IMG/VR virus record: IMGVR_UViG_3300045988_151591 | Coordinates: 34,841-98,840 of that record | From: a virus | Reading direction: 5' to 3' (one strand) | Length of the DNA: 64,000 nucleotides | The notes under the pieces: generated by a model | Seen by the model: the letters and a program-made list of their open reading frames with translations, nothing else | Told to the model about the DNA's origin: nothing | Database searches by the model: none | Shown here: in pieces, positions 3,798 to 53,335 of the stretch | Numbering within the stretch: the first letter of the stretch is position 1 | Layout of the letters: each line of letters starts with the position of its first letter | Made by a program: the position numbers and the translations under genes

Positions 3798-3819
3798 GCT
3801 TTGTTGTTTTGTAAAATTA

Positions 3820-5957: not shown

Positions 5958-5960
5958 ATT

Positions 5961-6212: not shown

Positions 6213-6226
6213 TCATAAGGTCATGC

Positions 6227-7155: not shown

Positions 7156-7163
7156 TACCTTTG
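7156..7163 (+). promoter_or_regulatory. Bacteroidetes -7 promoter motif TAccTTTG
   Basis: 'tacctttg' lies ~70 bp upstream of the 7232 start. Confidence 0.45.
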
Positions 7164-14710: not shown

Positions 14711-15796
14711 ATGTTTGACGAAGTTTGCTCTATTTATGAGTCTGCCCAAGATGCTTATGGTCGTTTCGTAGACCGCGAGACGGGTGAGTGCATTCAGCAG
14801 ATGACTATCCGCGAGTTCTGTCTTACGGACAGATGGAAGCCGTATGTTCAGCGCCTTCGTGCTATGCGTCAGGAATTTGGCAGCAAGGCAAAGAAGATGC
14901 CCGAGTACATCGATACCAAGAAGCATTTGCCTGGAGCAACTCTTAGCGGCTTGTTCGCCCTCTATGAGGATGACAGTCTGACCCATCCAGGGCAGCGTGT
15001 CATGGTTAGCCGACGAGAGAGCCACCTGAAACAGCACACGGGCTGGCTCGCCATCGACATTGATCTGCAGGACAATCTTCAGATAACTGATTTTGAAAGT
15101 ATATTTAAGCTTGCCCGTTTTCGTCCTGAGATAGGATTAATGATGCGGTCTTGCTCTGGTACTGGTTATTTCGGTCTGGTTCGTCTGGCCTATCCCGAAA
15201 GACACAAAGACCAGTTCAAAGCTCTGCTCAAAGAATATGCCGCTATTGGCATCATGCTCGACAAGGCTTGCAGCAACATCGGACGTGTGCGCTTCGCCTC
15301 ATGGGATGATCCCGAACATATATATATCAATGAAAATGTGGTGCCGTATAAGGGACTGGAAGATATGGCTGTGTTGCCATCGCTAATTCCTGTAACTAAA
15401 GTCGCTACGCATTACGAAAATACGTCGTCAGGTCAGAGGTCGGGTTATACTGGTGATTGGGAGAATGATACACCCGACATCATCTTGCGCAAAGCTCGTG
15501 TTCTTGTATGCAAGGTAGAGCAGAATGCTGTTGACATTATGGAAAACTATGATGACTGGGTTAAATGCGGAATGTCTTTATACAGTATCGATCCGCATGA
15601 AGGCTATGATATGTGGAAGCGAGTTTCTCGTTTCCGTCCCTTTGATGCCAACCACGGACACCGTGAATCAGACTTTGTGGCTCCTTGGAAATCATTCGGA
15701 AAATACGACAGAGTAAGAGCAAATACTTTTTTCATGTTTTGCAAAAGAGCCAAGGTAACACTTTCGAGGGAGGATATGCAGGAAATCTATGGCTAA
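14711..15796 (+). CDS. primase-polymerase (AEP-type) with PriCT-1-like C-terminal domain
   Basis: AEP motif I 'GWLAIDIDLQD'. 'SCSGTGYFGLV' and 'RVRFASWDD' motifs. C-terminal 'DWVKCGMSLYSI' PriCT-like segment. Confidence 0.6.
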   Translation: MFDEVCSIYESAQDAYGRFVDRETGECIQQMTIREFCLTDRWKPYVQRLRAMRQEFGSKAKKMPEYIDTKKHLPGATLSGLFALYEDDSLTHPGQRVMVSRRESHLKQHTGWLAIDIDLQDNLQITDFESIFKLARFRPEIGLMMRSCSGTGYFGLVRLAYPERHKDQFKALLKEYAAIGIMLDKACSNIGRVRFASWDDPEHIYINENVVPYKGLEDMAVLPSLIPVTKVATHYENTSSGQRSGYTGDWENDTPDIILRKARVLVCKVEQNAVDIMENYDDWVKCGMSLYSIDPHEGYDMWKRVSRFRPFDANHGHRESDFVAPWKSFGKYDRVRANTFFMFCKRAKVTLSREDMQEIYG

Positions 15797-15911
15797 AGGG
15801 TCGTAATCACAAAAAACATTTTTTTCACAAGTGTTAAATCGAAAACTCAAAAAATGGCAAAAAAGCCCTGATTTTCGCAAAAAGTGAAGCCTATGCGTAT
15901 TTACTTCATGT

Positions 15912-15945
15912 CTACTGATTGTTTACTGATTGTTTACTGATTGCT
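15912..15945. repeat. 3x tandem TACTGATTGTT
   Basis: 'ctactgattgtttactgattgtttactgattgctc' directly upstream of 15974. Confidence 0.5.
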
Positions 15946-15973
15946 CAAATGTTAAAATTCAAACAAAAAATAT

Positions 15974-16480
15974 ATGAAACTGATAACAATTACTGGTCCG
16001 AGTGGCGCAGGAAAGGACACTGTGGCTCAGATGCTGTCCGACTTGGGCGGCTATAAAGTGATATGTTCTTATACCACACGTCCGAAGCGCGAAGGCGAGA
16101 TTGACGGTTGGCAGCATTATTTTGTAGAGAAGTGCGACGTACCGCACGATAAGATGTTGGCATACACCCAGTATGGCGGCTATGAGTATTGGACCACCAT
16201 CGACCAGGTGACGGACAAGGCTATTTACGTGATTGACGAGGACGGACTGAAAGCCTTGTGTGAGAAATTCCCCGACATCGAGCTATTCAAGATTTGTGTG
16301 ACGGCATGGGAAGCAACTCGACTGCGCCGAGGGGTGTCGCAGGAACGCTTAGACCGCGATCAACAGCGCAATCTTCTGTCCTTGTTCTTCTACGATGCAG
16401 TAATCTTTAATAACGGCTCGCTCGAAAGTTTGTGCGACAAGGTGAAGCGACGAGTTTTGTGTAAACTTCGGGAAATATGA
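15974..16480 (+). CDS. guanylate kinase-like nucleoside monophosphate kinase
   Basis: P-loop 'GPSGAGKDT'. 'YTTRPKREGEIDGWQHYFV' matches the guanylate-kinase TTRxPRxGExDGxDYxFV signature. Confidence 0.75.
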   Translation: MKLITITGPSGAGKDTVAQMLSDLGGYKVICSYTTRPKREGEIDGWQHYFVEKCDVPHDKMLAYTQYGGYEYWTTIDQVTDKAIYVIDEDGLKALCEKFPDIELFKICVTAWEATRLRRGVSQERLDRDQQRNLLSLFFYDAVIFNNGSLESLCDKVKRRVLCKLREI

Positions 16481-16522
16481 GAATGCACTATTTTTTAAAT
16501 AACAAATTAAAATTCATCCATA

Positions 16523-17419
16523 ATGAAATTCATCGAACCACAAGTAGAATGGTGGCAGCAGACTACTCTTGCACAACATATAGCAAGAGTGGGCAGAATA
16601 TGCTACAAGGCAAAGGGCAAGCAGCCCGAAGAAGGAATGACCGAAGAGGAAGTGAAAACTTTCATCCAGAAGCGCGACGAGGAACGTTGCAGAGGCTTCT
16701 GGAAAAGCGGACATCGCTCGATGCTTCGCCACGGCACAGTCTATTTCTTTATGCCCAACGAAAGGGGTCTTCCTAACCACATCTGGGCATATCTGGAGGC
16801 ATCGCCTTACATCAACTATGCCACCAAGAATCATAAGGTATGGTTCAGTACCAATACTCAGTTTGCGCTTGAGCACGAGGACATGATGAATGCGCTTAGT
16901 CAGTATGGTGTCAGCGAAGACGAGTTTATCGAGAAGGCACTGAAGTACGAGTGTGAGGAGGCATTCTCTATTATCCGCATGACGATGGTAGTAACCACGC
17001 AGATAAGTACATCGCGTGAGCTCAACCGCACGTCGCCCAACAGCATCGCCGAGCAGAGCACACGCTATTGCAATTTAGAAAAAAAAGGAGGCGTACAGAT
17101 AGCACGTCCGCATTGGCACGAAGAAGGCAGTCGATGGCAGCGCTTTGTGTATGGCCTTGTATGTCGAGTGTGTGAGTGGGGCTACAACCGACTTCTGAAG
17201 TCCGGCTTGAAGCCGCAGGACGCACGAGGTGTTCTGCCTCTCGACACCTATACCGTTGTGGCATATACATACACGCTTTCCGACTGGAGCCATATTCTTG
17301 ACCTTCGCTTCCATGGCAAGACGGGCACGCCGCATCCCAATGCAAAGATGATTGGCGAGAAAATACGCAACATCATCATCGAGCGTATGCGCCAGTATTG
17401 TGATGAGTTTGACATTTAA
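16523..17419 (+). CDS. ThyX-family (flavin-dependent thymidylate synthase-like) protein, divergent
   Basis: C-terminal 'ARGVLPLDTYTVVAYTYTLSDWSHILDLR...' matches the ThyX ARxVLPL...R block. The canonical RHRxxSxxExSxRY motif is degraded to 'SRELNRTSPNSIAEQSTRY'. Confidence 0.65.
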   Translation: MKFIEPQVEWWQQTTLAQHIARVGRICYKAKGKQPEEGMTEEEVKTFIQKRDEERCRGFWKSGHRSMLRHGTVYFFMPNERGLPNHIWAYLEASPYINYATKNHKVWFSTNTQFALEHEDMMNALSQYGVSEDEFIEKALKYECEEAFSIIRMTMVVTTQISTSRELNRTSPNSIAEQSTRYCNLEKKGGVQIARPHWHEEGSRWQRFVYGLVCRVCEWGYNRLLKSGLKPQDARGVLPLDTYTVVAYTYTLSDWSHILDLRFHGKTGTPHPNAKMIGEKIRNIIIERMRQYCDEFDI

Positions 17420-19829: not shown

Positions 19830-19936
19830 ATTTTATAATATATTCGTTAAATATCAGAAATAGTATTTAGTTGTCAACGTCGTTGTCCGTGAGGATAGCG
19901 GCGTTTTTTTGTCCTTTTTGCCTACCTTCAATCTAT

Positions 19937-19944
19937 TACCTTTG
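19937..19944 (+). promoter_or_regulatory. Bacteroidetes -7 promoter motif TAccTTTG
   Basis: 'tacctttg' ~90 bp upstream of the protease-scaffold gene. Confidence 0.45.
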
Positions 19945-24113: not shown

Positions 24114-25022
24114 ATGGAACTTCGTCATTTGCGCTCATTTGTATATGTAGCCGAAACTTTATCGTTCAGTATTGCAGCCACGCGCTGTTGTGTCGCTCAG
24201 TCCGCCATCAGTCAACACATCAAGGCTCTTGAGGATGAACTGAGGTGCAAGTTGCTTATCCGCACCTCGCACAGCATTATGCTCACCGAGAGTGGCGAGG
24301 CGCTTTTGCCTCGCGCCAAGGAGATACTGAAGCAGACGGATGACTGCAAGGAGCAAATCAATGCGCTCAACAACTGCCTTGTGGGCGAGCTGAGGATAGG
24401 TGTAGGCTCTTTTATCGCACCTTACATTCGGATGGCGGCACTTATCTTCATGGAGCGATACCCGAATGTGAGAATCAACGCCGAGTTTGCCAAGGCAGCG
24501 AACTTGAACCACCTGTTGAGAAGCCACTCCATCGACCTCGCCTTCACTCTGAACTCTGCCTACAAGAATGAGGGTATCAAGTCAGAACCCTGTATTCCTT
24601 TCCGTATCTATGCGATGATGCGGGACACCCATCCCCTGGCCCGACTGGAAAAGGTGTCATACGAGGATTTGTTAAGGCACAACGTGATTATGCCCGATGT
24701 AGGCGAAAGGGTGTTCAATACCTTCCAGCAATATCTGAGATATGACTTGATGAAACTGAATGTAAAATGTATTGTGAGCGACCCCAACGAAGACCTTGCC
24801 ATCGTGGAAGAAACCCATTGTGTTACTTTCATGCCTAAACTTTATCTGAAGAGTCACCCCACCCTTACCGTCCGTCCCATCGTGGGGCTTGAGCACGACC
24901 TGATGAGCAATGCCCACTGGATGAAGGACGTGCCGATGAAGCGGTCAGCACAACTTTTTCTCGACATTGTGCGCAACGAAGCCATACCTTATATTAAAAC
25001 TCTTGAGGAAGCCATGCGATAA
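24114..25022 (+). CDS. LysR-family transcriptional regulator
   Basis: N-terminal HTH 'LRHLRSFVYVAETLSFSIAATRCCVAQSAISQHIKALEDELRCKLLIRTS'. The length and C-terminal domain fit the LysR family. Confidence 0.85.
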   Translation: MELRHLRSFVYVAETLSFSIAATRCCVAQSAISQHIKALEDELRCKLLIRTSHSIMLTESGEALLPRAKEILKQTDDCKEQINALNNCLVGELRIGVGSFIAPYIRMAALIFMERYPNVRINAEFAKAANLNHLLRSHSIDLAFTLNSAYKNEGIKSEPCIPFRIYAMMRDTHPLARLEKVSYEDLLRHNVIMPDVGERVFNTFQQYLRYDLMKLNVKCIVSDPNEDLAIVEETHCVTFMPKLYLKSHPTLTVRPIVGLEHDLMSNAHWMKDVPMKRSAQLFLDIVRNEAIPYIKTLEEAMR

Positions 25023-27628: not shown

Positions 27629-27894
27629 AAAGTAAAAAGGTAAAAAGAGCCGAATATCATTTTGCTGGCGTCAGCAAAATGGTAGTCTTGCCTTTTCAGG
27701 ATAATATTTCGTTTCAGAAGCCGCTTTGCTCCACGAAGAGTGCAGCATTGCGGCTTCCATTGTTTCCGGCTGCGTCAACCCGGTGCGCAGTCTGTCATAC
27801 AAAGTAGCTGGGATATTTTTGTCCCGCACGACGGATAGCGTTTTCGTATCTTTGCCCTACATTTATTAACAACAGAACAAGAAAACGATAAACT

Positions 27895-28449
27895 ATGGTA
27901 AAGATTGAACCTTTAGCTAAATTCATTCTCTCGTTTGAGGGAGGTTTCGTGAACGACCCGAAAGACCGTGGTGGCGCAACCAACAAGGGCGTGACCATCG
28001 GTACATGGCGGCAGCAGGGGTACGACAAGAACGGCGACGGACGGATAGACGTGCGCGACCTCCGACTTATCTCAGATGCTGACGCTACGGAAATCCTGCG
28101 CCGATGCTATTGGCGCCGATGCCGTGCCGACGAGATCAATGACCAGAGCATCGCCAACCTCCTTGTGGACTGGCTGTGGATCAGCGGTACGCCTGCCGTC
28201 ACCCTCACCCAAGCCATACTGGGTGTGAAAGCCGACGGCATCATGGGAAAGAACACCATGGCCGCCCTAAACCGACAGAACCCCGAAGCTTTCTTCTCGC
28301 GCCTCAAGGCTCGCCGCAAGTTGTACTACGAGCGGTTGGCGAAGAACAAACCGTCACAGAAGCGGTTCCTCGCCGGATGGCTTCGTCGGCTCGACGGCAT
28401 CCGATACGGCTCGCTCGTCGACAACCGGGGGAGAGAAATCACCTGGTAG
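27895..28449 (+). CDS. endolysin: GH108 lysozyme domain plus PG_binding_3-like domain
   Basis: 'FEGGFVNDPKDRGGATNKGVT' is the GH108 EGG..NDP.D.GG.T.G.T signature. 'DGIMGKNTMAALN' is the peptidoglycan-binding motif. Confidence 0.85.
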   Translation: MVKIEPLAKFILSFEGGFVNDPKDRGGATNKGVTIGTWRQQGYDKNGDGRIDVRDLRLISDADATEILRRCYWRRCRADEINDQSIANLLVDWLWISGTPAVTLTQAILGVKADGIMGKNTMAALNRQNPEAFFSRLKARRKLYYERLAKNKPSQKRFLAGWLRRLDGIRYGSLVDNRGREITW

Positions 28450-28469
28450 TTTTGATAACTTTCCCATCC

Positions 28470-28620
28470 ATTTTTGGATTTTTCTGGATAAATCTGGTCC
28501 AGCTTTTGGATTTTTCTGGATTAAAAATAGTCCAATTTTGGCGTTTTTTGGATAAAATCGTACAATTTTAGATTTTTTCTGTACTAAAATCGTCCAATTT
28601 TGGCATTTTTGGGATAAAAA
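28470..28620. repeat. 5x tandem ~30-bp repeat TTTTGGATTTTTCTGGATAAAATCGTCCAA
   Basis: Degenerate direct repeats read between the endolysin gene and 28638. Confidence 0.6.
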
Positions 28621-28637
28621 CTTAGGATTCTATAAAA

Positions 28638-29672
28638 ATGAACAATCCAAAAAAAATAGACTTACATCTTCCCCGACATTGGAATCTCTGCACTACGGAA
28701 CAACTGGAGCTGATAGCCGACGTGATACGCGAGCAGGTGGAGCGGCAGGACAGATACCACCCCTTCGACATGCGCAACGTGAAGGTGGCGATCTTCTTCG
28801 TCCTGTCGGGTTTGGAGATAGTGGCGCTGCCCGACTCTCGCCTCGACATCAGCGAGCAGTATTACCTCTGCCGTATGCAGGACGACGAGGACAACGACAC
28901 CTTTCCGCTGTATCTGTGGCAGATCAACTATTGGCTGACGCCCAAGGCGAAGACCGACGCCCGAAAGTCGGCAGAGTACATCGCTCAGGGAGCAGGCTTG
29001 CTCGACTGGCTTGACAACGAGAACGGTGCCTTTCTCACCCGCTTCCCCTACCCTGTCATCCGGCGACGCCGCGCATGGTGGCGACGCAAGAAGGTGTTCA
29101 GCGGTCCTGCCAACGACCTCGACGGATTTTCGTGGGCGCAGTATCGCTTCGCCTCCGACATGATGCAGACCTACACCCGACTGAGCAACAGCCTCTTGAA
29201 GATGCAGCAGCGCGGCACTTTCACCGACGAGCAGATGCAGCGGCAGATGAAGAACGTGAACGCTGCCCGGACGATGTTTCTCGCCACCATCTTCAACGGC
29301 ACGACCGACTATGTGGACAGCAACACGGGCATGGTGAAACACGACTTCCACTATGAGTTGAACCAGTGGGAGACGAACCAGTCCTATTTCCGCGATTTCC
29401 CCGAAACGGCATGGCAGGTGATACTCTTCTGGTGGACGGGCGTGATGCACACCCTCGCTCATCGTTACCGCCATGTGTTCAAGGTGCAGCCCATCAAGTC
29501 GCAGAAGCCCTCCACGCCCTTGGAGATATACACTGCCACCACCGCCACCATGCAGAAGTATGCCGGTCTGACGGAGGACCAGGTGAACAACCAGAGCTAT
29601 TCCCTCGTGCTGGAGCACCTGGAACGCCTGACGGTGGAGAATGAGGAAATGGAAAAGATAAGGAAAAAGTAA
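28638..29672 (+). CDS. hypothetical protein (344 aa)
   Basis: ORF with Trp/Arg-rich segments. The longer reverse ORF 28662-29765 is judged an antisense shadow. Confidence 0.55.
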   Translation: MNNPKKIDLHLPRHWNLCTTEQLELIADVIREQVERQDRYHPFDMRNVKVAIFFVLSGLEIVALPDSRLDISEQYYLCRMQDDEDNDTFPLYLWQINYWLTPKAKTDARKSAEYIAQGAGLLDWLDNENGAFLTRFPYPVIRRRRAWWRRKKVFSGPANDLDGFSWAQYRFASDMMQTYTRLSNSLLKMQQRGTFTDEQMQRQMKNVNAARTMFLATIFNGTTDYVDSNTGMVKHDFHYELNQWETNQSYFRDFPETAWQVILFWWTGVMHTLAHRYRHVFKVQPIKSQKPSTPLEIYTATTATMQKYAGLTEDQVNNQSYSLVLEHLERLTVENEEMEKIRKK

Positions 29673-29771
29673 GCTTTTAAAGGTAAAAAAGTAAAAAGGT
29701 AAAAAAGTAAAAAGAGCCTTCTTGCTGATTTCTAAGACGAAAAAAGTAATAATCAAACCAAACAAGAGAAT

Positions 29772-30912
29772 ATGAAATACGGACTACCTTACAAAGGAAG
29801 CAAAAACAAGTTGGCAGAGCGCATTGTGCGCCTCCTGCCCAAGCGCACGCACCTCGTAGATTTGTTCTGTGGTGGATGCGCCGTGAGCCATGCTGCCCTG
29901 CTTATGGGCAAGTATGAGCACATACATATCAACGACATCAACTGGATGTGTCCTACGCTATTCATTGATGCCCTTAACGGTAAGTACAATGACGAAAACC
30001 GATGGATTAGCCGTGAAGACTTCTTTCGTCTGAAGGACACTGACCCTTATGTGGCTGTAGTGTGGTCGTTTGGCAACAATCTGCGCGACTATCTTTATTC
30101 TAAAGAGATTGAGCCATTGAAGAAAGCCATACACTATGCCATATTCTTCAGCGACTATTCGCTTGGCAAAGAACTCGGTCACGACCTCTCGTTCATCGAC
30201 CCCATACAAGACCTTCAAAAGCGATACCTTGCCGTGAAGCATTACTTCAATAAGTTGGGTCACTTCCAGCAGCAATCGTTTGAGGGGGGGGCAGAATCAG
30301 CGGATGCAGCAGGAATCCTTCAGTCGCACTACCCGACTTGCCTCAATACAAATGGGGGGGTACTCAGAGGATGCAGTCAGCGGAAGCAAACGAAAGGCTC
30401 AATACATTTCGGAATATCATCCCTTGGAAAGGCTGTCAAATCCAGTCTTTCAAAAAAAAAAAAATACAAGCGACCCAGCGAGCTACAGCACAACGAAGGA
30501 CGAAACATCGTTGCATCGCTTGCAATATCGAGAACGGCAGCACAGTCTGCCCAGATATTCGGGGGGGCAGTTTCTACCTATTACGTCCTCTGTGCTTGAC
30601 TATGAAGAAGTCACGATACCCGAAGACAGCGTGATTTATTGCGACATTCCATACGAGGGTACAGACGGATATTTAGAAAAAGGCAAAGGAGGTTTCGACT
30701 ATGAACGATTCTATCAGTGGTGTGAGCGGCAAACGCAACCCGTATTCATATCCTCTTATCAAATACCCGAAGACCGCTTCGACTGCATAGAAGAGTTTAC
30801 CCATCGTTGCACCTTGGCTCAGAAAGACAACAACCTCGTGACGGAGCGCATCTTCGTTCCCAAGCATCAAGCCGAAAGAGGCAACCGCACCGTGCAGCTC
30901 ACGCTGTTCTGA
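29772..30912 (+). pseudogene. Dam-type N6-adenine methyltransferase, split across two frames by a ~300-bp homopolymer-rich insert
   Basis: N-terminal 'YKGSKNKLAERIVRLLP...LVDLFCGGCAV' is Dam motifs X/I. 'CDIPYEGT' is a DPPY-like motif IV in the 30280-30912 frame. Between them are G8, G8, A13 and G7 tracts, with no stop codons in two frames. Confidence 0.6.
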
Positions 30913-30970
30913 CAAGTATGTCCCACTCAGGAAAAAGCAAAGCAGTAACTTTGCCATAAGCATACGAAGA

Positions 30971-31061
30971 AACAAACGATGCCCATTGTTATATGCAAAC
31001 AATGCCCATTGTTTAACCACAACAATGCCCATTGTTGCATATAAACGATACCCATTGTTTT
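30971..31061. promoter_or_regulatory. array of 4 palindromic sites AACAATG-CC-CATTGTT
   Basis: Read directly at 30971, 30997, 31021 and 31044, upstream of the HU-like gene. The same motif occurs at 6172-6212. Confidence 0.55.
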
Positions 31062-31104
31062 GTTCGGGTAGATGCACAATGTATAATAACTAAATTTTAA
31101 GAAA

Positions 31105-31587
31105 ATGGCATTTTCATTAAAATTGAGCAAGTCGAAAGCCTATAACCCCTCCACCAAGGAGCAGGGCTTTCGCACCACCGTTAAGTCTAACGGCAAAGCA
31201 GACATGGACTCTTTGGTAGCGTCTGCAAGTAAGAACACCACCATGCACAAGGCCGAGCTCCGCATGGCTTTTGAGCTGATGCTTGACGCTATCGCCGAAG
31301 CGCTCACATCGGGAAAGAACGTCGAGCTCAAGGGTATCGGCAACATCGGTTTCTCATGCTCCGGCGCTTGGACCAAGACCGCCGAGGAGCAGACCAAGGT
31401 GGAGCACAAGATCGGTGTAGCCTTCTATCCAAGCAATGAGGTACACGCTGCCGTAGCCACAGCCAAGACATCGTGGACCAAGGATGGCGAGGGCGACGAG
31501 CCTACCACTCCCGGCACAGGCGACTCCGGCACCACGGGTGGCGGCGACCAGAAACCTGGTGGCAACCCTCCCGAGATTGAGTCGTAA
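31105..31587 (+). CDS. HU-like DNA-binding protein (Bacteroidetes HU-HIG type)
   Basis: 'AELRMAFELMLDAIAEALTSGKNVELKGIGNIGFSCSG' is an HU-fold-like segment. Gly/Thr-rich C-terminal tail ending '...GGGDQKPGGNPPEIES'. Confidence 0.5.
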   Translation: MAFSLKLSKSKAYNPSTKEQGFRTTVKSNGKADMDSLVASASKNTTMHKAELRMAFELMLDAIAEALTSGKNVELKGIGNIGFSCSGAWTKTAEEQTKVEHKIGVAFYPSNEVHAAVATAKTSWTKDGEGDEPTTPGTGDSGTTGGGDQKPGGNPPEIES

Positions 31588-31729
31588 AGGCAGCGGGTGT
31601 ATAGCCATTCCAGTTCTTTCCAATTTTGCAAGATTTGGAAAGAACTGGAATACCTACAGACACTCTATAGACAATGTACGATTGTCATATATAAGGATTT
31701 TAATGAATCAATATAAACAAAAAACAATT

Positions 31730-32548
31730 ATGAGAAAATTATTTTCAATTCTTTTTGCGCTTATCGCAGTAGTGATGTTATCCTCGTGCTGTTTTGTGTC
31801 GCCCGATGCCGACGAGGAAACCGTGTTGGTAAAGAAACCATGGTTCTTCGGACACGGAGGTGTTGACAACGACCCAGTTCAGAGTGGTCTGACATGGTGT
31901 GCCCTGAGTACTCATTCTGAAACATTCAAGATTGTGCCTGTACGCCACGAGGTAGTTCTTGACGACATCTTCTCCGACGATAACACGCCGCTCGACTTCC
32001 ATTCTGTCATAGTCACGCAGGTGGAGCAAGGCAAGTCGCCCATACTGTTGCAGAACTATGGACGCGACTGGTTTGATACCAACCTATACAACTACTTCTG
32101 CAATCTTATCAGAGACCATATCTCGCAGTACAGTCCGTTCGATTTGATGTCCAACCGACAGGTATTGAGCACCATCGACAAGAAGATTCTGAAGCAGATG
32201 CAGGATTACGTGGCTGCCCTCTCCAAGCACAAGCCGATGCCCGTCATCATCAAGGACGTTATCATCGGTAAGGCAACCCCAAACAAGGAACAGCTTGCCG
32301 AAATGAACCGCACGGCAAAGATGGTACAGGCCAAGCAGACACAGGAGCGTGAATATGAGGTTCAGGTGGCTCGCGAGAAGGCTGAACGCCAAAAGGCTGT
32401 GGCAGACAAGGCGTATATGAACGAGATGAATCTTAACCCGCAGCAGTTTATTCAACTTAAATGGGTGGAGACCGTGGCTCTGAAGCAGGGCGCAAACATC
32501 GACGTGCTCGTTGGTCCGGCAGAGCACATGTGGAATATCAAACGATAA
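31730..32548 (+). CDS. SPFH/band-7-like lipoprotein
   Basis: Lipoprotein signal 'MRKLFSILFALIAVVMLSSC'. C-terminal 'VIIKDVIIGKATPNKEQLAEMNRTAKMVQAKQTQEREYEVQVAREKAERQKA' resembles HflK/C-stomatin. Confidence 0.55.
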   Translation: MRKLFSILFALIAVVMLSSCCFVSPDADEETVLVKKPWFFGHGGVDNDPVQSGLTWCALSTHSETFKIVPVRHEVVLDDIFSDDNTPLDFHSVIVTQVEQGKSPILLQNYGRDWFDTNLYNYFCNLIRDHISQYSPFDLMSNRQVLSTIDKKILKQMQDYVAALSKHKPMPVIIKDVIIGKATPNKEQLAEMNRTAKMVQAKQTQEREYEVQVAREKAERQKAVADKAYMNEMNLNPQQFIQLKWVETVALKQGANIDVLVGPAEHMWNIKR

Positions 32549-32907
32549 TGTGCGACTACGATATGTAGGCGGACGCAACACGACACCCCGACAACAACAT
32601 AATATAGGCCATAATGCAAAAACGTGAAACATATTGTTAGATTAACTGCGGCTCGCACGGCTTCATTCCCGAAGACTACCAACACTCTCGAACTTTCCAA
32701 TTCTATGAAGTGGACGGGAAAGGGAAGGGAGAACCGACGGGACCGCAGTTTTTTCGCTCAGACGCGGTGCGCCGAATGAGGCAACCGCACCGTGCAGCTC
32801 TCGCAGTTCTGACTCATGTCCGTACCACTAAGACAATTCTTAGTACATTTGTAGTCGAAAAAAGCAACAACAACATACATCAACCCCTAAAAACAGGATA
32901 ACAGAAT

Positions 32908-34701
32908 ATGTCACGCAACAAGAACAGAGTTACCAACTTACAGCAGCTCCAAGATCGTAGTGAGGAGCTGAAGCGCGATGGATATGTGGCCGTGTCGCCC
33001 TCTGCTTTCATCAATCCCAACAGCGGCGCACAAGTCTTCTCATGGAACGATTACGTCCGCTCCATGCTCTTCGAGACAGCCGGCATGACAGCGCAGGGCA
33101 GCTCGTCCACCTCATCGGGAGCACGACGACAGATTTCCACCATCTTCGCCTCCAGCGGCGGCGAGAACAAGGCCAAGCCCAACGGCGTGGGAACACCCGG
33201 ACTGGGCTACATGGAATGGGGCGTGGGCAACCGACTGCCCAACCTCGTCTGGATTCTCTCACGGATGTCGCCATTCACCGCTGCCGGCGTCGACTTCATC
33301 AAGAAGATACTCGTAGGCCACGGACCCTCGCCCAAGTACCACTACACCCAGTACGTAGGCGGCAACATCACCGAGAAATACATCCCCTACGCATCGGCTG
33401 GCACACTGCTCCGCGGACAAATAGCCGACCTCAAGGCACAGGAGGCAGCAGAACGTCAGGCACAACAACAGAACGGCGTAAGCGGCGACCCCGACGATCC
33501 TCTGCATTTCGACAGTCAGCAGACCGAAGGCCAGCCCAAGGACAGCGACGAGATGAAAGCCCTGAAGGATGCGCTCGCCAAATGGGAACAAACCAACCGC
33601 GAGGTACAGAAATTCATAAAGGACAACGACCTGATGCAGACCTTCCTCAACATGGCGGGCGACATGGCGCTCATGTCGCAGTGCTTCGTCGAGCTGCAAC
33701 TCAACCAGCGGCAACTCTCCGATGAGGGCAAGCCGGTACCCACCAGCCAGTGGACCCCCAAGGTCGTGGGACTGAAACACCGCAGCATCTTCACCACCCG
33801 ACTGGAGCGACAGGACTCCAACTATCGCATCAACTATGCCTACGTGTCGAACCAGTGGCTCGACCCCACGCAAGACCGCACCGCACAGTTCGCCGACCTC
33901 GACAAGAGTATCGCCGCAGTGCCCTATCTTCCCGCCGTGTCGGCAGTGAAAGACCTCCATGCAGCCGTGCGCCGTGCCCGTCAGCAGCGAGTGAGCCGCA
34001 AGGACCGCCCCACCCGCTTCATCATGTCGCCACGCGACTATGGCGGTCCCTACTATGCCGATGCCCTCTGGCATTCCATCTTTGCCGGAAGCATCTACGA
34101 GTATGCCTTCACCATTGTCGACGACCGACTCACCCGTAAGCGCAACTCCAACATCATCGGTCGCGTCATCTACATTCACCAGGAATATCTCAAGAACCTC
34201 TACACCCAGCAGGGCGACAAGAAGACCAAGACCATGGCGCAGCTTCAGCAGGAGGTGTTCAGCGACATCAACACGTGGCTCTCCAATCCCGACAATGCGG
34301 GTCAGGCTCTTATCTCTGCCGTGTTCACCGGCGCCGACGGCAAGGAGCACAAGGCATGGGAGATTGTGGAGATAGAGAGCAAGGCCAACTCGCAAGCGCA
34401 AGCCGAGAAGACCGAGCTGCAGGAAATCACAAGCATCATCTTCTTCGCCATGGGCCTCGACTCCAAGCTCATCGGCAACACCCCAGGCGACGCAACCTCA
34501 TCGGGCGGCACCGACCTCCGTGAGCGTTTCCTCGTCAAGCAGATACAGTTTGCCCCATTGCAGCAGCTCATGCTCCGAGCCTTGGAGGTAATCGACGATT
34601 TCAATGAATGGGACACACACCTCGAATGGCAGATAGACCGTGAGGTGCTTACCACCCTCGACAACTCGAAGACAGGCGTCAAGAAGCAGGAACAGGAGTA
34701 A
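32908..34701 (+). CDS. portal-like protein candidate (597 aa)
   Basis: Size and position at the head of a structural operon. No motif certainty. Confidence 0.35.
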   Translation: MSRNKNRVTNLQQLQDRSEELKRDGYVAVSPSAFINPNSGAQVFSWNDYVRSMLFETAGMTAQGSSSTSSGARRQISTIFASSGGENKAKPNGVGTPGLGYMEWGVGNRLPNLVWILSRMSPFTAAGVDFIKKILVGHGPSPKYHYTQYVGGNITEKYIPYASAGTLLRGQIADLKAQEAAERQAQQQNGVSGDPDDPLHFDSQQTEGQPKDSDEMKALKDALAKWEQTNREVQKFIKDNDLMQTFLNMAGDMALMSQCFVELQLNQRQLSDEGKPVPTSQWTPKVVGLKHRSIFTTRLERQDSNYRINYAYVSNQWLDPTQDRTAQFADLDKSIAAVPYLPAVSAVKDLHAAVRRARQQRVSRKDRPTRFIMSPRDYGGPYYADALWHSIFAGSIYEYAFTIVDDRLTRKRNSNIIGRVIYIHQEYLKNLYTQQGDKKTKTMAQLQQEVFSDINTWLSNPDNAGQALISAVFTGADGKEHKAWEIVEIESKANSQAQAEKTELQEITSIIFFAMGLDSKLIGNTPGDATSSGGTDLRERFLVKQIQFAPLQQLMLRALEVIDDFNEWDTHLEWQIDREVLTTLDNSKTGVKKQEQE

Positions 34702-34773
34702 CCCTCCCCTCCCTGACTTCCGTCCCGACAACAACATCTTTTTTTCACCCAGCACATAACAGCACAACACATC

Positions 34774-35883
34774 ATGATACTTTCCACCAATCAAGAACTT
34801 CGGCTTATCCTGCCCAGCAATGCCGTGGACGATATAGCCAACCTGCAGGGCGTGCTCGACAACAGCGAGAAGGACTTCCTGCAGGACAAGTTGGGCAAGC
34901 CGCTCTACACACGGCTCTGCGAATACTACACCACCCTGGGCGGCGACGGCTTCTATCAGCAGAAGACCGACGGATCCTATGCCAAGAAACCATGGAGCGT
35001 CCTCCTCAACCTCGCCCAGCGCATGGTGGTCAACGACGCCATGGCGCGATACGCCTACCAGCAAATCCTTTCGGTCAACGGCGCAGGCGTCAACATCGCC
35101 TCCTCTACCGATTACGACCCCGCCACAGAGATACTCCTCGACAAGGGAGTGGCAGGATATAGGATGGAGGCCATGGTGTCGCTCAACAACCTCTTGAAAC
35201 TCCTTGAAAACTGGGCAGTCAGCATCAACACGCCAGCCGAAACAGCCGCCCCGAAAGACGGCAGCGCAAGTACAGAAGTACCAAAGGGCGAAAGTACAGA
35301 AGTACCTGACGACGGAAAATCCGACATACCACAGGACGAAAATGCCGAAGCCCATACAGCTATCGAGGAGATAGTGCTGTTGTGGCAGGAGAGCAAGTAC
35401 TACTATCTGCACCACGACCTCCTCTTTCCTACGTGCAGCGTCCTTGAGCAGTATCTTAGCGTGCACGACAACCGCGACAAGTTTATCCGTCTGTTGCCCG
35501 ACATCCGCTACGTACAGGACGAATACATAGCCGACGTGTTCGGCGACGAGCTCATCGACCGTCTTCAGCATGCCGACGACCGCGACAAACTCCTCCGTAA
35601 GGTGCGCCGACTGATGACCGCCTACCTCGTGGAGCGAACCACCGTCATCGCCTTTGACAAGGCTACCCGACTGTTGGCGCACAACGAGTCCATCTCGCTC
35701 CGCGATTCCGTCTATCGCCTCCTCAATGCCGAGAAGCAGGCTCAGGAAGCCGCCGATAGCAATGCCTCCTCCTCCACTTCCACCACGACCGCCGCTCCCT
35801 CATCATCCGCTGCAGACAAATCCGGCGGCTACGAGAATAACCAGGAGGGCGGCAAGATATTCGTCACACCACTCATGTTCTAA
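34774..35883 (+). CDS. hypothetical structural protein (369 aa)
   Basis: ORF with an acidic central region and a Ser/Thr-rich C-terminus. Confidence 0.5.
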   Translation: MILSTNQELRLILPSNAVDDIANLQGVLDNSEKDFLQDKLGKPLYTRLCEYYTTLGGDGFYQQKTDGSYAKKPWSVLLNLAQRMVVNDAMARYAYQQILSVNGAGVNIASSTDYDPATEILLDKGVAGYRMEAMVSLNNLLKLLENWAVSINTPAETAAPKDGSASTEVPKGESTEVPDDGKSDIPQDENAEAHTAIEEIVLLWQESKYYYLHHDLLFPTCSVLEQYLSVHDNRDKFIRLLPDIRYVQDEYIADVFGDELIDRLQHADDRDKLLRKVRRLMTAYLVERTTVIAFDKATRLLAHNESISLRDSVYRLLNAEKQAQEAADSNASSSTSTTTAAPSSSAADKSGGYENNQEGGKIFVTPLMF

Positions 35884-35913
35884 AACCCCGACAACAATAA
35901 AAGACACAACAAT

Positions 35914-36990
35914 ATGAACAAAGAGCAAATCATTCAGATACTCACGCCGGCACTCAACACCCGAATGCTGACTGCCGAACAGAAAGAAGCCTTCGAGCAG
36001 GGACTGACACTGCTTGAAAGCGTGCCCAGCGCACAGGCTTTCGTGCGCGACTCGCATCGTTTCCGCGACTACCACCGCCGTGTGCGCCAGTTGATCACCA
36101 GCCTGCAGATTATCCCCATCCCCGAAATTGCCGAAGCCAAGCGCCACGTGGGCCGACCCACCAAGGAGGAGCAGGCACGATACAACGAACAGCAGAAGCA
36201 GAAAGCCCTCGACGAAGCCCGCCAGTCGCTCTTCCCCGAGGTGAAGCCCAACGTGGCCGTACAGCCACTCACCTATGGCGGTATCGTGGCCAACCCCAAC
36301 GGCGAGAGCATCGCCGCCACCATGCCCAACCTCGCACAGATACGTCCTTTCCTCAGTCCTGCCCTTCAACAGCGCGTCAATACCGTGCGCGACCTCCGCA
36401 ACGAGATGGCGAGCAAGGCCGAGCAAGCCAAGACGATGGCAGAAGCCAACGAGAAGTCGCAACAGCAGAACAAGGGCATCCTCTACACTGAAGCCGAGAT
36501 AGCGTTGCTCGCCACCCGTGCGACAGAGATAGAGAGCCACATCCTGCCCGATATTTACATGGCAGTGGACCGCGAAATGGGCGAAGTCTATCTCCGATTG
36601 AATCAGCGCAACGGCGACCCCGAATATATTGCCTATGTGGAAAAGACTTTCAGTTTGTCGCCACAGGAACTGCGTACCCAGCTCAAGCCCTTCTATGAGA
36701 AAGCACAAGAGCGCGACCCTCGTTTTGCCGTCAGCATAGCAGAGAAAATCGCTGCCGACCGACCCGAGGTGAAAGCCGCACGCGACAAGGCAGCCAAGCA
36801 CAAGGCCGAAGCTGATGCCATCATCAAGTATATCATCCGCAAGGACAAGCCAAGTACCAAGGCAAGGGTGAAGGGACTGAAGGAGCGTATCGACCGTTTG
36901 CGCCAGGAGTATGCCGACATCGTAACCGAAGACGAACTCACCGGCTACGAGGCCATCCTTACCAAGACCATCGCCGAAGCGGGAGTCTAA
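35914..36990 (+). CDS. hypothetical coiled-coil protein (358 aa)
   Basis: Lys/Glu/Ala-rich, scaffold-like. Confidence 0.5.
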   Translation: MNKEQIIQILTPALNTRMLTAEQKEAFEQGLTLLESVPSAQAFVRDSHRFRDYHRRVRQLITSLQIIPIPEIAEAKRHVGRPTKEEQARYNEQQKQKALDEARQSLFPEVKPNVAVQPLTYGGIVANPNGESIAATMPNLAQIRPFLSPALQQRVNTVRDLRNEMASKAEQAKTMAEANEKSQQQNKGILYTEAEIALLATRATEIESHILPDIYMAVDREMGEVYLRLNQRNGDPEYIAYVEKTFSLSPQELRTQLKPFYEKAQERDPRFAVSIAEKIAADRPEVKAARDKAAKHKAEADAIIKYIIRKDKPSTKARVKGLKERIDRLRQEYADIVTEDELTGYEAILTKTIAEAGV

Positions 36991-40535: not shown

Positions 40536-41750
40536 ATGGATAGAAAAATATTAATCACAGGCACAGGTATCGTTTCCAGTCTTGGCAACGATACCTTTTC
40601 CGTCGCACAGAAGTTGGCAAATGGAGAGTGCGGTCTGCACCACGATCCCGCACGCAGCGAGAAAGGCTATCAGTCCGACCTGTGCGGAAAGATAAAGGAC
40701 CCGAACCCTTGGAAGTTATCTGAACTCACAAGGGCTCAACGGCAATGTTTTTCCGAACCGACCCTATATTCCTTATCTGCCGTCAATGAGGCTCTGATGG
40801 AAGCCAATATTCTTCCCGAGTTCTTGCAGTCTCACAATGTGTCTGTCATCGTCAGCAATGACTCTACGGCAGGAGAAAGCTATCAGGCAATGACCACTGC
40901 CATTACACAGCGCGACACCCGACGTTTAGGGGCGGCTGCAGTGTTTCGCACACTCAATTCCACCGTCAGCATGAACCTCGCCTCTATCTACGGACTGAAA
41001 GGACTTTCGCTTACCGTCAGCGGGGCTTGTGCCGGAGGAGGTCATGCCATTACTCTCGCCAAGATGCTTCTTGATACGCGCCAAACCGAAATGGTGATTG
41101 TCGTTGGCGCACAGGAGACTGGTCCCTTCTCCATGCTGTCGTTTGATGCCATGGGCGTATTCTCGCCAGACAAGGTGCAGCCTTTCGGCAAAGGCCGCAA
41201 TGGTCTGGCTCCTTCGGGTGGTGCTGCCTGTGTCATTCTTGAGCCTTCCGACAGCTTGCGTTTTGAGGATTATGAAGTCTCGCCCGTGGCAGAACTTTCC
41301 GGCTGCGGCTTCTCCACCAACGGCACCAACATCTGTACCCCGGATGCTTATCAGGAAGAAGTGGCAATGATTAAGGCCATAGAATCGGCAGGACTCGATG
41401 CAGGAATGATAGATGTACTCCTTGCCCATGCCACAGGTACAGAGCTGGGCGATGCTGCAGAGGCAGAAGCCATCGGAAAGGTATTCCCCGAGAGCCCTTA
41501 TATCGTAGCCACCAAGGGCATGACGGGGCACGAGTGCTGGATGGCTGGTGTATCGCAGGCCGTTCAAGCATCCATGATGCTCAACACAGACACTGTCTTC
41601 GGTGCGGCTACCACAGCCGAGAATGCTTTTCCCAAACTCAATCTCGTCATGCAGTCACGCGAGTACTCAGCACACCATATCCTCTGCAATGCCTTTGGCT
41701 TCGGAGGCACCAACTCATCATTCATCATCTCTAAATATCAACCATCATGA
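40536..41750 (+). CDS. beta-ketoacyl-ACP synthase (FabF/FabB-like KS)
   Basis: 'ITGTGIVSSLGN' N-terminus. Active-site Cys in 'TVSGACAGGGHAITLA'. His motifs 'LAHATGTELGD' and 'TKGMTGHECWMAG'. C-terminal 'NAFGFGGTNSSFII'. Confidence 0.9.
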   Translation: MDRKILITGTGIVSSLGNDTFSVAQKLANGECGLHHDPARSEKGYQSDLCGKIKDPNPWKLSELTRAQRQCFSEPTLYSLSAVNEALMEANILPEFLQSHNVSVIVSNDSTAGESYQAMTTAITQRDTRRLGAAAVFRTLNSTVSMNLASIYGLKGLSLTVSGACAGGGHAITLAKMLLDTRQTEMVIVVGAQETGPFSMLSFDAMGVFSPDKVQPFGKGRNGLAPSGGAACVILEPSDSLRFEDYEVSPVAELSGCGFSTNGTNICTPDAYQEEVAMIKAIESAGLDAGMIDVLLAHATGTELGDAAEAEAIGKVFPESPYIVATKGMTGHECWMAGVSQAVQASMMLNTDTVFGAATTAENAFPKLNLVMQSREYSAHHILCNAFGFGGTNSSFIISKYQPS

Positions 41751-41995
41751 ACAAAGAAGATATACGTCAGCGGGTGTTCAATATCGTTGAAGGCCTGCGC
41801 ACACCTTGGGCATCGACAGCAGAAGTGACCGACAGCGCTAACCTGCGTGATGATCTTGCTCTTGAGTCTATTGACTTTCTCGACCTCGTTCTTCAGACCG
41901 AAACCATGTTCCATATCAAGATTTCGCCAGAAGAGGCAAAAGACTTACAGCTTGTGTCTGATGTGACAGCTATCGTAGAGAAGAAAATGTCTTAG
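41747..41995 (+). CDS. acyl carrier protein
   Basis: 82 aa. 'DDLALESIDFLDLVLQTETMF' matches the ACP DLGxDSLDxVELVMxxEE helix-II motif, with a conserved Ser. The ATG overlaps the KS stop codon. Confidence 0.8.
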   Translation: MNKEDIRQRVFNIVEGLRTPWASTAEVTDSANLRDDLALESIDFLDLVLQTETMFHIKISPEEAKDLQLVSDVTAIVEKKMS

Positions 41996-43183: not shown

Positions 43184-43281
43184 TATCTATGTGTCACCCT
43201 CCCGCGCCATGCTTTGTCCCTATCAAGAAACGTGTTTTCGGTAACTTTGCTACATCTAAAAATAAATAATCAAAAATCATC

Positions 43282-52148: not shown

Positions 52149-52607
52149 TTACTCTCCAGGCACAGTAAAGTCTATCCACTTCACGTTAGGGAAGTACTTC
52201 TGGTAGTTGTCCTTGGTGATGTCCTGTTCCCAGTCGGTGCCGTCCATATACTCTATGCAGACGCTCACGGGCATGGCATGCACCTTCTCCACTCCGATGA
52301 AGGCAGCGTTTGCCAAACGCTTATACTTCTTGTTCGTGTCGAAAGGTCCCGTTGCCGACACCTTGCGCAACTGAAGGTTGGGTGTCATGCCTACCGACAC
52401 GTCGCCTACCTCGTTTACGGCACACCACTCCACCTTGACGTACTTCACCTTCTTCTCTCCGTCGCATGTAAAACTGACGTACAGCGCCTTGGTTGTGTAG
52501 AGCAGTGTAGGCTTGAGCTTGAAGCTTGAGAACACCACTTGCGCATTTGCTGTATGGGCAACGAGCATCATTGCCAACAGCAGCAGCATCTTGATTGATT
52601 TTTTCAT
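52149..52607 (-). CDS. secreted protein with signal peptide
   Basis: 'MKKSIKMLLLLAMMLVAHTANAQ' followed by a beta-rich sequence. Opposite strand to its neighbours. Confidence 0.55.
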   Translation of the reverse strand: MKKSIKMLLLLAMMLVAHTANAQVVFSSFKLKPTLLYTTKALYVSFTCDGEKKVKYVKVEWCAVNEVGDVSVGMTPNLQLRKVSATGPFDTNKKYKRLANAAFIGVEKVHAMPVSVCIEYMDGTDWEQDITKDNYQKYFPNVKWIDFTVPGE

Positions 52608-52723
52608 ACTTTGATATTTTTATTCGTTAATATGTTCATATTTTCGTAGTCTTACACTCTCCCACTCCCTTATTATGTCCGATGTTTCACGCACGTTTTT
52701 TGTACCTTTACACTATGAGCAAC

Positions 52724-52772
52724 GTCGTAGTACTTTCATAGTACTCTCGTAGTACTTTCGTAGTACTTGCTC
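52724..52772. promoter_or_regulatory. 4x tandem (T)CGTAGTACTT(T) repeats containing palindrome AGTACT
   Basis: Read in the divergent intergenic region between 52607 (minus) and 52829 (plus). Confidence 0.5.
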
Positions 52773-53297: not shown

Positions 53298-53335
53298 CCC
53301 ACGGCAGGCACACGGCTTGCCGTGGGATTTTTATT
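53298..53335. terminator. bidirectional intrinsic terminator
   Basis: 'cccacggca...tgccgtggg' 9-bp stem plus 'atttttatt'. Lies between convergent genes. Confidence 0.55.

Follow-up and report, generated by a model that had tools for sequence, protein, structure and literature searches.

A phased array of near-palindromic repeats as a candidate operator for the adjacent HU-HIG protein in a human-gut phage

Four phased copies of a 16-base near-palindrome lie directly upstream of a gene for a protein of the HU-HIG family in the DNA analysed here, a 64-kb stretch (the window) that is part of a phage genome of about 100 kb. On balance, we think it probable that this array is the cognate operator, that is, the site cluster, of the HU-HIG protein encoded 45 bp downstream of its last copy. 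Binding of the protein to the array appears quite likely; repression as the outcome of occupancy is less secure, and we would give it slightly under even chances. The tip of an N-terminal beta-hairpin is the candidate reading head, an assignment that comes from comparing related phages, in which repeat and hairpin tip change together. These relatives are contigs of 50-106 kb, from IMG/VR and from human-gut metagenomes. A search of 185,579 species genomes finds the HU gene in only two short contigs of metagenome-assembled genomes, one of them labelled Prevotella sp., and Prevotella are the probable hosts of this group of ~100-kb human-gut phages. A megablast search of positions 28000-36000 against 50,697 GenBank phages returned no match, and with PHROGs and Pfam most genes neighbouring the array remain unnamed. 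The elements of the locus are the following.

29772-30912, plus strand: Dam-like (D12) methyltransferase (Pfam), split over two frames (29772-30599 and 30280-30912)
30919-30953, plus strand: promoter-like motif TGTCC-N22-TAACTTTG upstream of the array, with a -7 box of the form TAnnTTTG
30960-30972, plus strand: left frame GCATACGAAGAAA, directly before the array; unique in the window
30975-30990, plus strand: repeat copy 1, AACGATGCCCATTGTT
30998-31013, plus strand: repeat copy 2, AACAATGCCCATTGTT (consensus)
31021-31036, plus strand: repeat copy 3, AACAATGCCCATTGTT (consensus)
31044-31059, plus strand: repeat copy 4, AACGATACCCATTGTT, with 2 mismatches
31063-31075, plus strand: right frame TTCGGGTAGATGC; unique in the window
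31105-31587, plus strand: HU-HIG family gene, 160 amino acids (aa); Pfam HU-HIG (PF18291), E=1e-11, 45.4 bits against a cut-off of 26.2
31132-31170, plus strand: variable hairpin-tip patch, codons 10-22 of the HU-HIG gene, in which positions 10, 12, 13, 16, 19, 20 and 22 vary

The repeat has the consensus AAC[A/G]AT[G/A]CCCATTGTT and starts at 30975, 30998, 31021 and 31044; its palindrome is imperfect, with 7-bp arms (AACAATG/CATTGTT) around a non-symmetric CC centre. Read along the plus strand, positions 30975-31059 are AACGATGCCCATTGTT-atatgca-AACAATGCCCATTGTT-taaccac-AACAATGCCCATTGTT-gcatata-AACGATACCCATTGTT, with a start-to-start period of exactly 23 bp and spacers of 7 bp, or 2.19 helical turns at 10.5 bp per turn, and Tandem Repeats Finder reports 30972-31060 with a period of 23 and 3.9 copies. 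At up to 3 mismatches, the 64-kb window holds 9 matches to the motif, counted by strand, against 0.77 expected, a number reached in 0 of 100 shuffles; the 9-mer CCCATTGTT occurs 5 times against 0.62 expected, confined to the array and to a second locus at 6173-6211 (one occurrence, at 6180). The repeat is real and non-random, far beyond chance, and the sequence comparisons give good support to a role in protein binding. An earlier account of the window made from its letters alone (the sequence-only reading) had reported a four-copy palindrome array at 30971-31061 between a Dam remnant and an HU-like gene. The four 16-mers and both neighbours, the split D12 methyltransferase upstream and the HU-HIG gene downstream, are as it described, and its spacing of 24-26 bp (2.5 turns) is to be corrected to 23 bp and about 2.2 turns. 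A relative 92% identical to the window, L005, keeps the motif in 3 copies against 4, with one 23-bp unit fewer (copy 3, 31021-31036). In L005 the methyltransferase is intact (378 aa, 2700-4040); its split form in the window is either a recent pseudogene or an assembly frameshift.

The boxes that flank the array are more constant than the array itself. The left frame is kept as a GCATACGAAGAAC-like sequence in relatives irrespective of array type, and a GGGTA[G/T]ATGC-like sequence follows the array in most relatives of the window's HU subfamily (huA), again with any array type. A possible degenerate fifth copy lies in phase at 31068-31083 (GTAGATGCACAATGTA, 10/16 matches) and overlaps the right frame TTCGGGTAGATGC. 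The frame boxes GCATACGAAGAAC and TTCGGGTAGATGC were considered as a general promoter signal and ruled out, each being unique to the HU locus in the window.

A putative promoter precedes the array. TAnnTTTG is the Bacteroidota -7 consensus, and the motif TGTCC-N22-TAnnTTTG(C) has 7 copies in the window against 0.03 expected (300 block shuffles), at 7129-7163 (plus), 7094-7060 (minus), 19910-19944 (plus), 27820-27854 (plus), 30919-30953 (plus), 32817-32851 (plus) and 43215-43249 (plus), all of them intergenic, gene-proximal and gene-directed. Read from the sequences, it stands at the same position in the HU loci of relatives from both protein subfamilies. At the HU gene 151 nt separate the -7 box from the start codon, versus 26-90 nt at the other six sites; the excess corresponds to the 92-bp array, which therefore sits in the predicted leader, at roughly +15 to +100, if, as we infer, transcription starts near the motif. 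The four phased 16-bp near-palindromes thus lie between a motif-predicted promoter and the ATG of the gene itself. The -33 region reads TGTCC rather than the Bacteroidota TTTG, and this class of motif suggests a phage-specific factor or a temporal promoter class. Scans for sigma-70 promoters and terminators gave nothing useful, with no plus-strand sigma-70 match between array and ATG, as expected for a host of the Bacteroidota type.

As the array is predicted to be transcribed, its repeats could act as tandem RNA hairpins in the 5' leader and not in DNA, and the leader does fold better than shuffled sequences (z = -4.5). That fold is, however, the trivial pairing of repeated palindromes. Several array types, being perfect palindromes, leave no space for a loop (TTTCGCGCGAAA, GGTTCGAACC), a strict phasing of 21-23 bp is characteristic of double-stranded DNA, and the motif at the second locus is transcribed in the opposite sense. 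We consider an RNA role the most improbable of the explanations weighed here.

The protein encoded at 31105-31587 is also matched by the HU-DNA_bdg and Bac_DNA_binding profiles (Pfam). Its AlphaFold model, made with a diverse alignment (mean predicted local distance difference test, pLDDT, 80.3), has strands at residues 4-14 and 19-27, which form an N-terminal beta-hairpin (4-27), then the HU core, and one more strand at residues 121-124. The best match of the model among solved structures is 4FMR (BVU_2165; E=1.3e-6), ahead of classical HU, IHF and Hbb, 4FMR being the Bacteroides representative of HU-HIG; a sequence search of the PDB with the same protein found only classical HU, at E about 0.01. 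HU-HIG proteins were defined as an HU core with an extra N-terminal hairpin plus a strand on the C-terminal side, the C-terminus being a winged helix-turn-helix, an immunoglobulin domain or a glycine-rich tail (Burroughs et al., 2017; PMC5499826). The modelled protein has the extra hairpin and the C-terminal strand on its HU core, and its residues 132-160 (PTTPGTGDSGTTGGGDQKPGGNPPEIES) are Gly-rich and predicted disordered, with an acidic tip conserved in relatives. This tail may recruit a partner, as was likewise suggested for HU-HIG tails (PMC5499826).

No second HU-like open reading frame (ORF) was found in the 64-kb window and no second HU-HIG gene elsewhere in 238 relative loci, and the two HU subfamilies never occur in one contig. 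The subfamily forms 114 clusters at 50% identity among 1.84 billion representatives, and huA has 557 homologues at >78% identity. Variation within huA is concentrated at residues about 2-22 and in the tail. Among the variable positions of the hairpin tip stand invariant K11, N14, K18, G21 and R23 and near-invariant P15.

Loci of huA were gathered by exact-protein look-up together with scans of metagenomes and viromes. In 33 non-identical loci on contigs of human-gut phages, the stretch between promoter motif and gene carries a dyad motif repeated 2-7 times with a period of 21-23 bp; such arrays occur in both HU subfamilies, and the motif differs between phages. The 33 loci comprise about 18 hairpin signatures (about residues 9-22) and 10 array cores, and no signature is associated with two cores; site sequence and presumed DNA-reading part of the adjacent protein therefore co-vary without conflict. 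Hairpin residues 9-22 are KSKAYNPSTKEQGF in type A and KTKTVNPQTKEVGF in type G. The pairings in huA and in the second subfamily, huC, are these.

huA, hairpin KSKA[Y/F]NPSTKEQG[F/Y]: array AAC[A/G]ATGCCCATTGTT, core ATGCCCAT (window, L093, L094, L098, L122)
huA, hairpin KSKAYNPSNKEQGF: array AACTATGCCCAT[T/A]GTT
huA, hairpin KSKALNPSTKKMGY: array AAGTGATGCCCATAACTT
huA, hairpin KSKAINPSTKKMG[Y/F] (KSKAI..TKKM): core ATACCTAT, with several different outer arms
huA, hairpin KTKAYNPSTKKQG[Y/F]: array AA[T/C]AGATACTTCT[A/G]TT
huA, hairpin RTKAYNPSTKEQGF: array AGGATATACTTnTCCT
huA, hairpin K[T/A]KTVNPQTKEVGF: array TTTCGCGCGAAA
huA, hairpin KTKTINPSTKKMGY: array TTTCGCCCGAAA
huC, N-terminal residues ..RVNNFTKEKVASAQ: array GTGTCGGCAC (L004 and L084)
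huC, N-terminal residues ..RVNHLTQEKLASAQ: array GTGTTAGCAC (L088)
huC, N-terminal residues ..RSNSITKEKVASAN: array GGTTCGAACC (L087 and L090)
huC, N-terminal residues ..SNSITKEKLASAT: array of the AGAGTCGGCTG type (L089)

At the level of signature and core, KTKAY..TKKQ pairs with AGATACTTCT, KTKTV..QTKEV with TCGCGCGA and KTKTI..TKKM with TCGCCCGA. Single substitutions are informative: on the same KKM background, Ile13 goes with core ATACCTAT and Leu13 with ATGCCCAT, the bases changed being the dyad-related positions 3 and 6, a paired change of the kind expected if the two subunits of a symmetric dimer each read a half-site. A similar case in huC is provided by the near-isogenic L084 and L088, which do not differ in their upstream DNA and hardly differ in the rest of the protein; all three repeats read GTGTCGGCAC in the former versus GTGTTAGCAC in the latter (the same two-base change each time), and the protein differs by N13H, F14L, K16Q and V19L. 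The same array type is found behind different upstream genes (D12 methyltransferase, C5 methyltransferase or DUF4406), so that the array goes with the HU gene and not with its neighbours. Furthermore, HU-HIG homologues at 31-38% identity, in unrelated phage contigs, have 2-3 upstream dyad repeats at a period of ~22 bp.

In the mechanism that we propose, the HU-HIG protein would be a homodimer, like HU-fold proteins, and each subunit would recognise one half-site of the 16-bp dyad AACAATG-CC-CATTGTT, either with the hairpin tip (residues ~9-22) itself or in a way that depends on it. The 7-bp spacers would set neighbouring dimers roughly on one helical face and favour cooperative binding. Since the array lies between promoter motif and start codon, its occupancy should hinder transcription of the HU gene, which would be negatively autoregulated, either through a block close to the promoter or through a roadblock. 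One or both copies at 6173-6211, in a leftward operon, would be further targets of the protein. A cooperative operator array was one of the interpretations offered by the sequence-only reading, and it is the one favoured by the dyad sites, the roughly two-turn phasing, the position from promoter to gene and the co-variation with the HU-like protein. Of the two binders it had named, the HU-like protein co-varies with the array, and no ParB-like factor was recognised among the ORFs scanned.

The second locus (5958-6226) lies in this leftward operon between a 268-aa gene (6227-7033, minus strand) and a PAPS-reductase-like gene (5109-5957, minus strand). The sequence-only reading had placed the motif of the main array at 6172-6212 as well, where one full copy and one half copy are present. 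The locus contains several array types.

6018-6067: AGAGTCGGCTG-type array, as upstream of the HU gene in L089
6087-6143: GTGTTAGC-type array, 2.6 copies, as in L088
6148-6163: AATGTGTCGGCACATT, one copy, as in L004
6173-6211, plus strand: the window's own motif, as a full copy at 6173-6188 (1 mismatch) and, 23 bp on, a half copy at 6196-6211 (AACGATGCCCATCACC)
6217-6231: AAGGTCATGCCTATT, as in L096 and L001

Similar mosaics occur in relatives (including L157-L236, just downstream of the 268-aa gene), in the conserved order huA types, then huC, with 1-3 copies of each. The self type is present and slightly enriched: the window (type A) has A twice and C once, and L160 (type C) has C twice and A once. 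In type G phages and in the phage of L067, a mixed cluster that includes the self core lies between a 607-aa gene and a DUF6712 gene. Beyond the mosaic of the window, three 11-mers (TTTTTATAG, 5960-5990), in a stretch of 75% A+T, abut the start codon of the next gene. A location of the arrays at genome ends, suggested by L001 and L003, where they are near the start of the locus, was rejected, as the contig of L003 puts the region ~13-15 kb in.

Several points weigh against the array being the operator of the HU-HIG protein. The mosaic at 5958-6226 consists mostly of non-self types, and similar mosaics occur in phages in which only a remnant of the HU gene, or no HU gene, was found. The array is ~60-130 bp from the hairpin codons, a distance at which the association could partly be co-inheritance, and the loci compared are not phylogenetically independent. 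Within the KSKAI..KKM signature the outer arms differ between phages (AAGGTT.., AACA.., AGGA..), so that the hairpin tip cannot be the sole determinant. The transcription start is predicted from the motif only, and the conserved box at 31063-31075 may represent another promoter, one dependent on an activator, in which case regulation would have the opposite sign. Finally, it was argued from 4FMR that the N-terminal hairpin gives few residues to the DNA clasp, and HU-HIG proteins were judged unlikely to be sequence-specific transcription factors (PMC5499826). For phage members with a Gly-rich tail, our comparative data appear to argue otherwise.

Co-inheritance can be set against the pattern of divergence within the gene. 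Synonymous divergence (pS) is equal in codons 2-22 (0.53) and codons 23-128 (0.54), and the ratio of non-synonymous to synonymous divergence (pN/pS) is 0.36 in the hairpin versus 0.20 in the rest of the HU gene. The non-synonymous changes of the hairpin are at positions 3, 4, 10, 13, 16, 19, 20 and 22, alternating with fixed residues. Variants of helix alpha-2 (HKAELRMAFELMLD, HKGEMQLAFTLVLD, HPAEIRMAFELVLD) occur with several hairpin types, and vice versa, which shows that recombination breaks associations over ~100 bp; the array core lies about as far from the hairpin codons on their other side, and in no case is it mismatched with the hairpin type. Diversifying selection on the hairpin was also considered, and the divergence argues for it only weakly, pN/pS being raised yet below 1 and pS near saturation.

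The same data bear on the idea that another, unlinked regulator binds the array and that the link to the HU N-terminus is hitch-hiking in a recombination cassette. Indeed, in L004 and L006 a swap of 29672-31508 takes methyltransferase, array and HU N-terminus together, the leader between array and ATG also diverges between types, and the window encodes other DNA-binding proteins, namely three small helix-turn-helix (HTH) proteins and one LysR regulator. The small HTH proteins served as a control. In the 74-aa HTH protein the recognition region does not differ between phages of types A and C. The 125-aa XRE protein shows 93-96% identity across phages of types C, D and E but only 65% within a type C pair and a type D pair, and for the 97-aa HTH/Zn-ribbon protein the figures are 97-98% across these three types and only 25% between two phages of type C. 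By sequence, these three do not track array type; the LysR-family regulator at 24114-25022, which is full-length (HTH_1 and LysR substrate-binding domain), stands outside this comparison. A distant partner would need to be exchanged at every cassette swap, distant HU-HIG homologues carry upstream arrays too, variation is focused on alternating hairpin positions amid uniform synonymous divergence, and alpha-2 reassorts when the array does not. An unlinked binder is accordingly improbable in our view.

A rival to repression keeps the HU-HIG protein as binder and makes the array an upstream activating site, the bent DNA switching on a weak promoter in the 45-bp gap and acting likewise at other clusters. 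HU and IHF proteins are often architectural activators. Arrays end ~45-100 bp ahead of a same-strand start codon in all three contexts, namely at the HU locus, at 5958-6226 and, in L067 and L073, between the 607-aa gene and the DUF6712 gene, and after the array of the window the conserved box TTCGGGTAGATGC is followed by TATAAT. However, neither a TAnnTTTG -7 box nor a TGTCC-type motif is present between array and ATG, a very good copy of the promoter motif lies upstream of the array instead, and the plus-strand sigma-70 scan of the gap is empty. We hold activation to be unlikely, although it is the strongest of the rival explanations.

A wider proposal concerns the system as a whole. The non-self arrays of the second locus could be left over from past swaps, could be landing pads by which the locus stays compatible with any incoming cassette, or could sense, or act as decoys for, the proteins of relatives in a co-infection. 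It is conceivable, if rather doubtful, that HU-HIG proteins and arrays form a hypervariable recognition system between related phages, with at least 10 mutually distinct specificities that are set by the hairpin tip and exchanged as cassettes, and with a 'catalogue' locus in each genome through which a phage could sense, or come under the control of, the HU-HIG protein of a co-infecting or resident relative (immunity, incompatibility or cross-talk). If true, this would give the HU superfamily a new mode of DNA reading and the HU-HIG clade a function.

Exchange between close relatives is directly visible. L004 and L006 have flanks 94-98% identical to the window, and 29672-31508 of the window is replaced in them by another cassette, in which the methyltransferase is intact, (A)ATGTGTCGGCACATT occurs three times at a 22-bp period, and the product of the HU-like gene is only ~35% identical to the window's over the first ~150 residues but has the same Gly-rich tail. 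Two HU subfamilies (~35% identical) occupy the same locus in near-identical phages and end in an identical tail, PGTGDSGTTGGGDQKPGGNPPEIES (L084 compared with window ~31508-31587). A recombination breakpoint inside the HU gene that leaves the tail in place suggests that the tail serves a phage-specific partner. The sequence-only reading had held that absence of the array from close relatives with otherwise conserved flanks would speak against it; in L004 and L006 the flanks are conserved, yet a different array stands there with a different HU N-terminus, and we take the joint swap as the signature of a specificity cassette and not of a dispensable repeat.

In other lineages the cassette is decaying. 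At least 8 related contigs retain a 36-codon HU-HIG remnant (MAMSLELSKTKAYNPSTKKQGYRATVKSNGKADMDSS*) with a single AATAGATACTTCCATT repeat, at about 4100-4217 or 1501-1608 (L025, L030, L036, L037, L039, L044, L123-L127, L146-L153), and the protein, judged from these sequences, seems to be non-essential. This dispensability weakens ideas that tie the HU gene to replication origin or packaging.

The first of these would make the arrays iterons of an origin or copy-control locus, with the HU-like protein as autoregulating initiator or origin-remodelling factor. Phased direct repeats of 17-22 bp are typical of iterons, and the array has a 23-bp period and 4 copies; across types, there are direct repeats of 16-20 bp at a 22-23 bp period in 3-7 copies, one cluster at the gene of the binder and another elsewhere. 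P1 RepA (incC/incA) and F (ori2/incC) have the same two-cluster layout. Moreover, the second locus adjoins the 75% A+T stretch with the three 11-mers at 5960-5990, and the cumulative GC-skew minimum is near 6-8 kb. That minimum, however, coincides with a switch of gene orientation, the 11-mers lie directly against a start codon, no DnaA-box-like sequence was found within a few hundred bp of either locus, and the flanks of the main array are only 60% and 73% A+T, the 75% stretch being at the second locus alone. The adjacent protein has an HU fold, not the winged-helix fold of Rep, and its gene is reduced to the 36-codon remnant in at least 8 contigs. An iteron function is very improbable on this evidence.

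A partition/centromere-like site, bound by the HU-like protein or a ParB-like factor, had been suggested by the sequence-only reading. Tandem repeats upstream of the gene of the binder, together with diversification into types, do resemble parC/ParR of R1 and pSK41. Yet Pfam recognised no ParA, ParM, TubZ or ParB among greedy-called ATG-start ORFs of at least 59 aa in the 64-kb window, a scan that covered nearly all greedy-called ORFs (the window covers all but ~36 kb of the ~100-kb genome). Neither an integrase nor any plasmid-prophage hallmark was observed, the HU gene is nearly absent from species genomes (the two short contigs mentioned above), and it decays in relatives. The suggestion finds little favour here, and we rate a centromere a shade lower still than an iteron.

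Equally remote is a cosB/pac-like packaging site with the HU-like protein as a TerS-like subunit whose C-terminal tail docks on terminase or portal. A variable N-terminal reader, a co-varying upstream array and a conserved tail mirror lambda Nu1/cosB as compared with phage 21, and downstream of the HU gene come an SPFH gene, a conserved 597-aa gene and then large genes that are possibly head genes. Against this, no terminase was recognised in the window, the HU gene is ~40 kb from the 597-aa gene in other relatives and is dispensable, and the arrays lie at two loci that are not at contig ends (the L003 cluster is ~13-15 kb in).

Other repeats and genes of the window deserve mention. A 32-bp repeat of 4.9 copies with TCCAATTTTGGA palindromes (28467-28620) lies upstream of a 344-aa gene (28638-29672) that has no Pfam or PHROG match; the repeat has 4.9-6.9 copies in L004-L006, and the two may constitute another protein/array pair. 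An XRE-type repressor gene (55099-55476, minus strand) stands beside a 33-bp repeat of 2.3 copies (55475-55550) in a divergent region, the HTH/Zn-ribbon gene (53331-53624, minus strand) has two alleles among relatives that are 25% identical, and repeats of 16 bp (three copies) and 11 bp (four copies) occur nearby at 52595-52768; this region looks like a classical, allelically diverse immunity-type region. A HicA toxin gene (54359-54538, E=1.5e-10) followed by a UPF0150/HicB-like gene (54607-55014) suggests that the phage carries a toxin-antitoxin pair. A beta-ketoacyl synthase gene (40536-41750), overlapped by a small acyl-carrier-protein-like gene (PP-binding, 41747-41995), sits among large genes of no assigned function, upstream of tail-fibre-like genes. 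The segment 2895-5957 (minus strand) encodes the PAPS-reductase-like protein and then two DNA methyltransferases, and 14711-17419 (plus strand) a primase-like protein (BT4734_N and PriCT_2), a guanylate kinase and a ThyX-like protein. The 64 kb yielded no recognisable terminase, integrase or DNA polymerase.

HU-HIG is a large, fast-evolving, Bacteroidota-specific branch of HU whose function is not known, and its phage members now have a candidate DNA target and a candidate specificity element. The sole HU-HIG analysis that we found argued against sequence-specific binding (PMC5499826), and no description of such repeat arrays was found in the literature on HU-HIG or PF18291. If confirmed, the pairing would amount to a new reading head on a classic 'non-specific' fold. 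It would offer naturally orthogonal protein/operator pairs for Bacteroidota and suggest that abundant human-gut phages possess a layer of regulation or recognition diversified into types.

Functionally, the nearest parallel is the lambdoid immunity cassette, in which a type-specific regulator and its phased dyad operators are exchanged between mosaic genomes. In lambda, CI and Cro act at OR1-3 and OL1-3, each with three 17-bp operators separated by 6-7 bp spacers. Dyad sites of 16-17 bp with 6-7 bp gaps, giving a period of ~23-24 bp, are common to lambda and the array described here, as are the position beside the gene of the binder (here a presumed one) and the many specificity types, exchanged as cassettes between otherwise near-identical genomes. 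In contrast to lambda, the protein has an HU fold with an N-terminal beta-hairpin instead of an HTH, the sites are 2-7 direct repeats, no divergent partner gene is present, the HU gene is lost in some relatives and non-self operator types are kept at a second locus. TF1 of Bacillus phage SPO1 is a phage HU-fold protein that prefers particular sites and affects transcription, and TF1, IHF and Hbb show that an HU fold can be site-selective (HU, IHF and Hbb are among the fold matches). TF1, however, requires hydroxymethyluracil DNA and uses the classical arms, each IHF site stands alone and is asymmetric, and we know of no phased arrays, N-terminal hairpin or population of specificity types for any of the three. 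With the HU-HIG clade (PF18291, 4FMR) the protein shares the N-terminal hairpin, HU core, Gly-rich tail and Bacteroidota host group, and the phage members here have in addition a conserved non-coding neighbour, the co-varying repeat array. Iteron/Rep loci (P1 RepA incC/incA, F RepE, lambda O/ori) also combine ~22-23 bp direct repeats, two clusters and type diversity, but differ in protein fold, in the dispensability of the gene seen here and in that no evidence of origin function was obtained. The parC/ParR loci of R1 and pSK41, in which cooperative coating and autoregulation operate, likewise have tandem repeats upstream of the gene of the presumed binder, but no partner nucleoside triphosphatase was recognised in the 64 kb, and no sign of plasmid-like maintenance was found. 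As an operator array, the element would be of an ordinary kind; what would be new is that the binder has an HU fold and a hypervariable hairpin, that the phage population holds a range of specificity types and that a second locus combines several of them.

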